Source: a phage. Taken from it: DNA of 627 nucleotides. Shown here piece after piece: positions 1 through 627 of this stretch. A program made the position numbers and the translations under genes. Numbering within the stretch: position 1 is the first letter of the stretch; each line of letters opens with the position of its first letter. The notes below the pieces were generated by a model. That model did no database searches. It had not been told where the DNA came from and saw only the letters and a program-made list of their open reading frames with translations. The stretch lies in sequence record DQ006816.1; one strand, 5' to 3'.

Positions 1-24
1 TATTTACTGAGTATAAGAGGACAT
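1..24 (+). other. Partial 5' leader (untranslated region) of a Qβ-like ssRNA phage genome, plus-sense strand shown as cDNA
   Basis: Sequence immediately upstream of the A2 start codon; 'ACTGAGTATAAGAGGACATATGCC' matches my recollection of the Qβ 5' leader/A2 initiation region. The window appears to begin a few tens of nt inside the genome, so the 5'-terminal hairpin is not included. Confidence 0.75.
15..21 (+). promoter_or_regulatory. Shine-Dalgarno / ribosome-binding site for the A2 cistron
   Basis: AAGAGGA at 15-21 is purine-rich and complementary to the 16S rRNA 3' end; it lies 3 nt upstream of the ATG at 25-27. The spacer is short but within the working range. Confidence 0.7.
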
Positions 25-627
25 ATGCCTAAATTACCACGTGGTCTACGTTTCGGAGCCGATAATGAAATTCTTAATGATTTTCAAGAGCTCTGGTTTC
101 CAGATCTCTTTATCGAATCTTCCGACACGCATCCGTGGTACACACTGAAAGGTCGAGTGTTGAACGCTCACATGGATGACTACTTACCTAATGTAAGCGG
201 TCGCCAAGTAAGGCGTACTCCACATCGTGTTACTGTTCCGATTGCCTCTACAGGCCTTCGTCCAGTAACAACCGTTCAGTATGATCCCGCAGCACTATCG
301 TTCTTATTGAACGCTCGTGTTGATTGGGATTTCGGTAATGGCGACAGTGCGGACCTTGTCATAAAAGACTTTGTTTTCCGTACCTTTGCACCTAAGGACT
401 TCGATTTCTCGAATTCCTTAGCTCCTCGTTATACCCAGGCCTTCTCCGCCTTTAATGCCAAATATGGCGTTATGATCGGTGAAGGGCTCGAGACTATAAA
501 ATATCTCGGGCTTTTACTGCGCAGACTGCGTGAGGGTTACCGTGCTGTTAAGCGCGGCGATTTACGTGCTCTTCGCAGGGTTATCCAGTCTTACCATAAA
601 GGTAAGTGGAAACCGGCTCTGCTGGAA
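25..627 (+). CDS. A2: Maturation/lysis protein A2 of a Qβ-like leviphage, N-terminal 201 codons; 3' end truncated by the window boundary
   Basis: ATG at 25 with an upstream SD; open frame with no stop through position 627, checked codon by codon. The translation MPKLPRGLRFGADNEILNDFQELWFPDLFIESSDTHPWYTLKGRVLNAH...YTQAFSAFNAKYG.MIGEGLETIKYLGLLLRRLREGYRAVKRGDLRALRRVIQSYH.GKWKP matches the Qβ A2 N-terminus as I recall it at about 94-95% identity. The match is recall-based, not a search result. Confidence 0.92.
   Translation, partial: MPKLPRGLRFGADNEILNDFQELWFPDLFIESSDTHPWYTLKGRVLNAHMDDYLPNVSGRQVRRTPHRVTVPIASTGLRPVTTVQYDPAALSFLLNARVDWDFGNGDSADLVIKDFVFRTFAPKDFDFSNSLAPRYTQAFSAFNAKYGVMIGEGLETIKYLGLLLRRLREGYRAVKRGDLRALRRVIQSYHKGKWKPALLE

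Follow-up and report, generated by a model that had tools for sequence, protein, structure and literature searches.

The A2 protein of the RNA coliphage Qβ attaches to both the F pilus and the genomic RNA. It is described as a single-copy maturation protein whose inhibition of MurA leads to lysis in PMC12856241 (citing Cui 2017 and Bernhardt 2001) and in PMC10610835. The former, citing Cui 2017, places the MurA contacts mostly in residues 30-120 of the N-terminal beta-region and gives residues 1-180 as the shortest lytic fragment of A2; for A2 to be incorporated into virions, attach to the host, and cause lysis, the C-terminal region is required (PMC12856241). Strains BR12 and VK, first isolated from creek water and sewage, are among the named FRNAPH reference strains (PMC6963950), and M11 (AF052431) and MX1 (NC_001890/AF059242) belong to the other branch of genogroup III.

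The stretch of DNA analysed here (the window) comprised the 627 nt of record DQ006816.1, and all coordinates below refer to its plus strand. The only long frame was a 201-codon ORF without a stop codon, which began with the ATG at 25 and ran to the window end. The first 24 nt (1-24) were the tail of the 5′ UTR, aligned to about nt 37-61 of complete Qβ genomes (FJ483842 and relatives), and contained the Shine-Dalgarno sequence GAGGA (17-21) upstream of the A2 ATG. By megablast against deposited phage genomes, the window matched Qβ-type RNA coliphages only, at about genome nt 37-663 and under the annotated A2 gene; its ATG at 25 corresponded to the annotated A2 start at 61/62, which is that of the first gene, located about 60 nt from the genome 5′ end and preceded by GAGGA. 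Codons 1-198 (25-618), covering the N-terminal beta-region and the start of the alpha-region, were assigned to the A2 maturation/lysis gene from the ORF and from the matches to PDB and Pfam. The translation belonged to Pfam family PF03863 (Phage_mat-A; 140.4 bits against a cutoff of 25, E = 9.7e-41), matched PHROG 4286 (E = 1.4e-49), and was 94.4% identical to the A2 chains of PDB entries 5VLZ, 5VM7, 7LHD, and 5MNT (E = 1.9e-128). A search for homologous proteins with the 201-aa translation returned zero matches, and no RNA family was retrieved from Rfam at E≤1. A single-sequence AlphaFold2 model of residues 1-198 (mean pLDDT, 35.8; pTM, 0.29) was too poor to be used for the fold or surface. 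The window stopped at codon 201, and the A2 ORFs of the nearest relatives have the full 420 aa. Residues 1-180 lay unbroken and entirely within the window; because this reported lytic fragment and the reported contact segment 30-120 are both contained in it, the window would hold the whole lytic and MurA-binding part without interruption. From homology, its A2 is expected to bind the F pilus, and both pilus binding and MurA inhibition are presumably equivalent to those of Qβ.

An initial annotation of the window had listed eleven A2 residues, placed at 172-600, as differing from those of Qβ. Codon-by-codon comparison with laboratory Qβ (AB971354, Anc(P1); CDS 61-1323) over residues 1-198 gave exactly the same positions and residues, namely M50 (L), Y53 (R), S58 (G), T76 (S), D110 (N), K114 (N), V117 (L), D125 (E), A133 (V), V149 (T), and K192 (N), with the laboratory Qβ residue in parentheses. 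The listed reference residues were all correct and were also found in the sequences of 5VLZ/5VM7/7LHD and 5MNT, and the interval was right, codon 50 occupying 172-174 and codon 192 occupying 598-600. The accompanying 201-aa translation was sound as far as residue 198; its last three residues (199-201, LLE versus TAG) arise from a one-base deletion after 618. The remaining 187 of the 198 residues (94.4%) were the same as in laboratory Qβ. The net charge change of the eleven substitutions was zero, R→Y and N→D offsetting two N→K changes.

The distribution of each substitution was examined in a comparison table of 14 other Qβ-proper genomes together with M11, MX1, and SP. At codon 50 (172-174), ATG (Met) replaced CTT (Leu) of laboratory Qβ, with Met also in BR12, Ile in VK, and Phe in M11 and MX1. 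Codon 53 (181-183) was TAC (Tyr), requiring two adjacent base changes from Arg, which is encoded by CGY in all 14 other Qβ-proper genomes; TAC for Tyr was found in an uncultured metagenome contig, M11, and MX1. Tyr53 was the only one of the eleven residues missing from BR12 and from all complete Qβ-proper genomes; its TAC codon recurs in the independently obtained contig and in M11/MX1, so that Tyr occurs naturally at this site and does not reflect an error. The next three changes were AGC (Ser) for GGC (Gly) at codon 58 (196-198), ACA (Thr) for TCA (Ser) at codon 76 (250-252; Thr also in BR12, FrMerlot, FrBurgundy, FrHibiscus, and GIII_C), and GAC (Asp) for AAC (Asn) at codon 110 (352-354). 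Codon 114 (364-366) carried AAA (Lys) in place of AAT (Asn), with Lys also in BR12, VK, and MX1; codon 117 (373-375) carried GTT (Val) in place of CTG (Leu), with Val also in BR12 and VK; and codon 125 (397-399) carried GAC (Asp) in place of GAG (Glu), with Asp also in BR12, VK, FrMerlot, FrBurgundy, FrHibiscus, and GIII_C. Toward the end of the window, codon 133 (421-423) was GCT (Ala) instead of GTT (Val; Ala also in BR12, BZ1, M11, and MX1), codon 149 (469-471) was GTT (Val) instead of ACT (Thr; Val also in BR12, VK, M11, and MX1), and codon 192 (598-600) was AAA (Lys) instead of AAT (Asn; Lys also in BR12, VK, FrSangria, HL4-9, BZ1, M11, and MX1). All eleven positions vary among natural isolates, and each flagged substitution is already present in deposited sequences and is thus not new. 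The A2 of natural Qβ-type isolates was 92-98% identical to that of the window, so eleven differences are typical. At six of the eleven sites (53, 110, 114, 133, 149, and 192), the residue of the window was that of M11 and/or MX1; these six residues may possibly be older states, in which case the differences would partly reflect changes on the laboratory-Qβ side.

NC_001890.1, a RefSeq record titled 'Enterobacteria phage Qbeta', has MX1 locus tags, and its A2, annotated as 'head maturation protease', was 59.8% identical in protein to the A2 of the window, the same value as for AF059242; if this record were taken as the Qβ reference, a badly misleading count of differences would be obtained. In LC710219.1, the coat-protein region (1335-1736) bears the gene name 'lys' and a note reading 'lysis protein A2'; the true A2 is labelled just 'maturation protein'. 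The 'lys' label looks like an annotation slip.

The initial annotation had called the window a variant or close relative of Qβ, and the nearest genome was indeed a field strain, BR12, at 97.4% nucleotide identity versus 92% for laboratory Qβ. Strain VK (FJ483843) was 95.2% identical to the window and carried eight of the eleven residues, and the other Qβ genomes, including laboratory Qβ and its experimental derivatives, showed 91-93% identity by megablast. An identical sequence was absent from the collections searched, which consisted of complete genomes and contigs only, the best match being at 97.4%. The metagenome contig IMGVR_UViG_3300019216_000421 was the one contig surfaced by an exact-pattern search on the codon context of Y53. 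A protein-guided scan of IMG/VR gave no Qβ-like contig beyond it, and an exact IMG/VR search with the motif private to the window, CGA at codon 44, gave no match. A degenerate metagenome pattern hit 37 loci, among which the same contig was again the one Qβ-like locus and the rest were chance matches.

The p-distances from the window were 0.024 for BR12, 0.035 for the contig, 0.046 for VK, and at least 0.069 for all others. In a neighbour-joining tree based on 594 coding nt, the window was grouped with BR12, the contig, and VK, apart from laboratory Qβ and from the HL4-9/BZ1 and Fr-series/TW18/GIII_C groups. The lineage-marking residues S58, D110, K114, V117, V149, and K192 were present together in the window, and K114, V117, and V149 were found among Qβ-proper genomes in BR12, VK, the contig, and the window only. 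The window would thus be a cDNA of the 5′ end (about genome nt 37-665) of a natural genogroup III F-specific RNA coliphage (Qubevirus durum, Qβ type), derived from the BR12/VK sub-lineage and not from the laboratory Qβ lineage, and encoding the N-terminal 198 residues of A2. The overall reading, in which the gene is a wild BR12/VK-lineage Qβ-type A2 and the eleven differences are ordinary strain polymorphisms already in deposited sequences, was given a probability of about 0.9.

Within the BR12/VK group, grouping the window with the contig and grouping it with BR12 were each supported by about three derived sites, derived bases at 181, 182, and 228 being common to the window and the contig only, and those at 375, 450, and 576 to the window and BR12 only. 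A mosaic of a BR12-like genome and a Y53-bearing, contig-like genome would produce such a conflict, with about three derived sites on each side. The conflicting sites are, however, interleaved (169, 181-182, 204, 211, 216, and 228) and not arranged in blocks; they are also few, and homoplasy or a reversion to R53 in BR12 would look alike. As a source of the conflict itself, homoplasy or reversion at codon 53 may be regarded as just as likely as recombination, and a recombinant origin of the window was considered very unlikely.

The same comparisons bear on two further origins of the differences. Experimental-evolution lines account for many of the deposited Qβ records (GQ1539xx, JF7197xx, MH1080xx, and AB971354), and laboratory evolution or engineering of the standard Qβ clone might accordingly have given rise to the window. 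Those lines were nevertheless 91.5-92.7% identical to the window and no closer to it than their ancestor, coevolution added only about 7.5 mutations across the genome (PMC3150450), and the 47 differences in 594 nt between the window and laboratory Qβ were mostly synonymous and matched field strains; a derivative origin is therefore given next to no weight. That the window is ordinary Qβ misread through sequencing or RT-PCR error is suggested by three private one-base deletions near its ends (probability by chance, about 6e-5), which indicate poor quality of the ends. Against errors as the source of the coding differences, each of the eleven substitutions, like almost every synonymous change, is found again among the independently determined sequences of BR12, VK, and the metagenome contig, the window has just two private interior bases (both of them synonymous), and random errors would not be about 75% synonymous. 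As an account of the window as a whole, error has a negligible probability; it is refuted for the eleven substitutions and holds for the terminal indels and residues 199-201 only.

The three terminal deletions, which the initial annotation had missed, were checked against 14 other Qβ-proper sequences, one of them the metagenome contig, and against M11 and MX1 as well at the 3′ end; none of the three occurred in any of the 17 relatives. At the 5′ end (5..6), the C of TATTTCACTGAG was absent, and the window read TATTT-ACTGAG, a state private to it. The invariant motif of the relatives at this site was TTTCACTGAG; all 14 of the 14 Qβ-proper sequences reaching the site read TTCACTGAG, and AY099114, which starts at CACTGAG, falls short of it. 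At the 3′ end (618..627), an A after 618 and a T after 625 were absent, giving GCT-CTGCTGG-AA versus the invariant GCTACTGCTGGTAAT, a motif unchanged even in M11 and MX1. The deletions sat 6-10 nt from the window ends with about 600 nt free of indels between them; the chance given above is that of three randomly placed indels each landing no more than 12 nt from an end. Primer errors or untrimmed, low-quality read ends probably account for them, the deletion at 5/6 being a probable read-end artefact. Because the deletion after 618 shifts the frame, residues 199-201 are very probably spurious products of a read-end or primer artefact. A real frameshift after codon 198 would lead to the loss of the C-terminal 220 residues of A2. 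The first few bases and residues 199-201 are consequently unfit for interpretation. Over 603-627, the window agreed with laboratory Qβ and not with BR12/VK at G606 and G616 (the latter giving A198), and its 3′ end could derive from a primer designed on laboratory Qβ; G606 is also present in the metagenome contig and G616 in FrMerlot, which counts against this primer origin.

Codon substitutions between the window and laboratory Qβ were counted over the 594 coding nt. The 47 nucleotide differences fell into 31 synonymous and 11 non-synonymous codons (dN, 0.030; dS, 0.285; dN/dS, 0.107), and a similar ratio was obtained versus BR12 (dN/dS, 0.118). The two nucleotide states private to the window were both synonymous and at the third codon position. 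The initial annotation had regarded the substitutions as mostly conservative and perhaps neutral isolate variation, an opinion borne out by their recurrence in BR12 (10/11), VK (8/11), and the metagenome contig (11/11) and by the dN/dS of about 0.11. The eleven polymorphisms would then be lineage-level changes accumulated under purifying selection. Because they are common to independently sequenced wild genomes, they are most likely compatible with a working A2, and neutral or nearly so. Variation was unevenly distributed along the gene: codons 1-48 (25-168) were near-invariant among Qβ-proper isolates, with one variable residue site among the 48 versus 24 in the next 150 (Fisher P = 0.011), which suggests strong protein and/or RNA constraint on the extreme N-terminus of A2. 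Residues 49-58 formed a local variability hotspot, with H49Y in the contig, L/M/I/F at 50, R/Y at 53, and G/S at 58.

The initial annotation had suggested that the substitutions could in principle change lysis timing or host interaction. The por alleles of A2 (L28P, D52N, and E125G) were not used as evidence in what follows. R53Y is non-conservative, with a positive charge lost and an aromatic ring gained, and neighbours L54; L54R (U221G), a change associated with a shift in host specificity, appeared only when phage was coevolved experimentally with a pilus-impaired traQ-mutant host (PMC3150450). Residues 49-58, with M50, Y53, and S58 beside the L54R site, might form a tunable surface loop of the A2 beta-region, in which R53Y alters F-pilus or MurA engagement and thereby host range or lysis timing, but the chance of this is slim. 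The amino-acid choices at 49-58 would in addition be limited by base pairing of their own codons in an RNA hairpin (described below). A broader proposal is that the substitutions, chiefly M50, Y53, and S58, are adaptive, with a retuned beta-region loop changing F-pilus recognition or MurA affinity and hence host range or lysis timing. Seven of the eleven lie within residues 30-120, the segment reported to hold most of the MurA contacts (PMC12856241, citing Cui 2017), and the hotspot, the adjoining coevolution mutation L54R (PMC3150450), and the non-conservative, two-nucleotide change R53Y point in the same direction. The segment was nonetheless not enriched in substitutions (7/11 versus 5.1 expected, P = 0.19), the dN/dS of about 0.11 gave no sign of positive selection, Tyr53 occurs also in M11/MX1, so that the site naturally tolerates both states, and pairing in the RNA hairpin accounts for part of the pattern at 53, 54, and 58. 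Naturally variable sites were likewise not enriched in residues 30-120 (12/25 versus 11.5 expected). An adaptive origin was accordingly judged improbable, and altered lysis or pilus binding, to which nothing in the sequence points, is not favoured.

For RNA structure, a consensus was derived from an alignment of the window, 12 Qβ-proper sequences, M11, and MX1. It consisted of 198 pairs, with 95.6% of cells paired, and changes on both sides were observed in 33 pairs, versus 10.4 ± 2.4 after column shuffles and 6-12 when partners were slid by 1-3 columns; as the structure was built from the same alignment as the covariation count, this comparison favours the structure somewhat. Two of the eleven substitutions were in pairs with compensatory changes. 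The G58S change (G196A) is paired with the synonymous change C184U in the first base of codon 54, converting C-G to U-A; at this pair (184/196; columns 185-197), CG was found in 8 sequences and UA in 5, U-A occurring in the clade of BR12, VK, FrSangria, and the window, and C-G in laboratory Qβ. Likewise, the N110D change (A352G) is paired with the synonymous change U378C in the third base of codon 118, converting A-U to G-C (pair 352/378; columns 356-382; AU, 8; GC, 6). Some of the substitutions would therefore have been shaped by RNA as well as protein constraint, the pairs at G58S and N110D being restored by a synonymous change of the partner. Further compensatory double changes versus laboratory Qβ that keep predicted pairs were seen at 234/264 and 48/216, the latter being A-U in the window alone, G-C in laboratory Qβ and the contig, and G-U in BR12.

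The codons of the hotspot fell in a predicted local hairpin (170..209; helix 10) with arms at 170-187 and 193-209, in which 4 of the 15 pairs were changed on both sides. It holds codons 50, 53, 54, 58, and 61, and the bases of codon 53 (181-183) are predicted to pair with the region of codon 58 (197-199). At pair 182/198, the window has an A·C mismatch (codon 58, AGC), and A-U is kept in the contig (AGT). The coevolution mutation L54R (U221G; PMC3150450) also falls inside the predicted hairpin. A predicted long-range helix (helix 1; 13 pairs, 4 changed on both sides, 93% of cells paired) joins the Shine-Dalgarno region (7..21) to a 3′ arm with the anti-Shine-Dalgarno sequence UCCUC (423..438), located about 400 nt downstream in codons 133-138. 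Its compensatory changes come mainly via M11 and MX1. In Qβ and MS2, a long-range helix of this kind restricts translation of the A protein to nascent RNA. The predicted helix between 7-21 and 423-438 is consistent with such long-range repression of A2 translation, and the variable base of V133A (422) is an unpaired nucleotide abutting it. The base-paired polymorphic RNA thus includes the region sequestering the A2 ribosome-binding site. Because several of the A2 polymorphisms lie in base pairs of a covariation-supported RNA structure, protein and RNA have to be considered together in reading them; the overall view of the differences as ordinary strain polymorphisms is unchanged by this.

Assignment to the BR12/VK lineage places the window among the genogroup III F-specific RNA coliphages, which serve in faecal source tracking. 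The A2 of laboratory Qβ, on which the structures are based, departs from that of common wild strains at about 5% of positions in the N-terminal (beta-region) half. Beyond such bookkeeping the consequences are small. The gene is the well-known A2, carried here by a wild member of a sub-lineage already described.

Among the known systems, Qβ strain BR12 (FJ483842.1; creek water, USA; A2 annotated as 'assembly/maturation protein', ACT66737.1) is the closest to the window, with the 97.4% nucleotide identity extending over the whole window and 195 of 198 amino acids the same. BR12 shares the 5′ UTR, the clade, and ten of the eleven substitutions, and differs in R53 (CGC), A69, and T198 (Y53, V69, and A198 in the window), in 10 synonymous codons, and in the absence of the terminal deletions. 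The metagenome contig (Ga0179939_1057709; 2,890 nt, uncultured and Qβ-like) is 96.3% identical in nucleotides, encodes an intact 420-aa A2, and carries all eleven substitutions including TAC for Y53; it is unlike the window at H49 (Y), V69 (A), A97 (V), R98 (H), V175 (A), and A198 (T), with the contig residue in parentheses. Laboratory Qβ (AB971354/AY099114; 5MNT, 5VLZ, 5VM7, and 7LHD) has the same gene without internal indels relative to the window and the same RNA secondary-structure scheme, but differs from it in the eleven substitutions and 31 synonymous codons (about 8% nucleotide divergence). Its A2 is the dual maturation and MurA-inhibiting lysis protein. M11 and MX1 have a homologous A2 of only 60-63% amino-acid identity to that of the window, and share with it Y53, D110, A133, V149, and K192, together with K114 in MX1.
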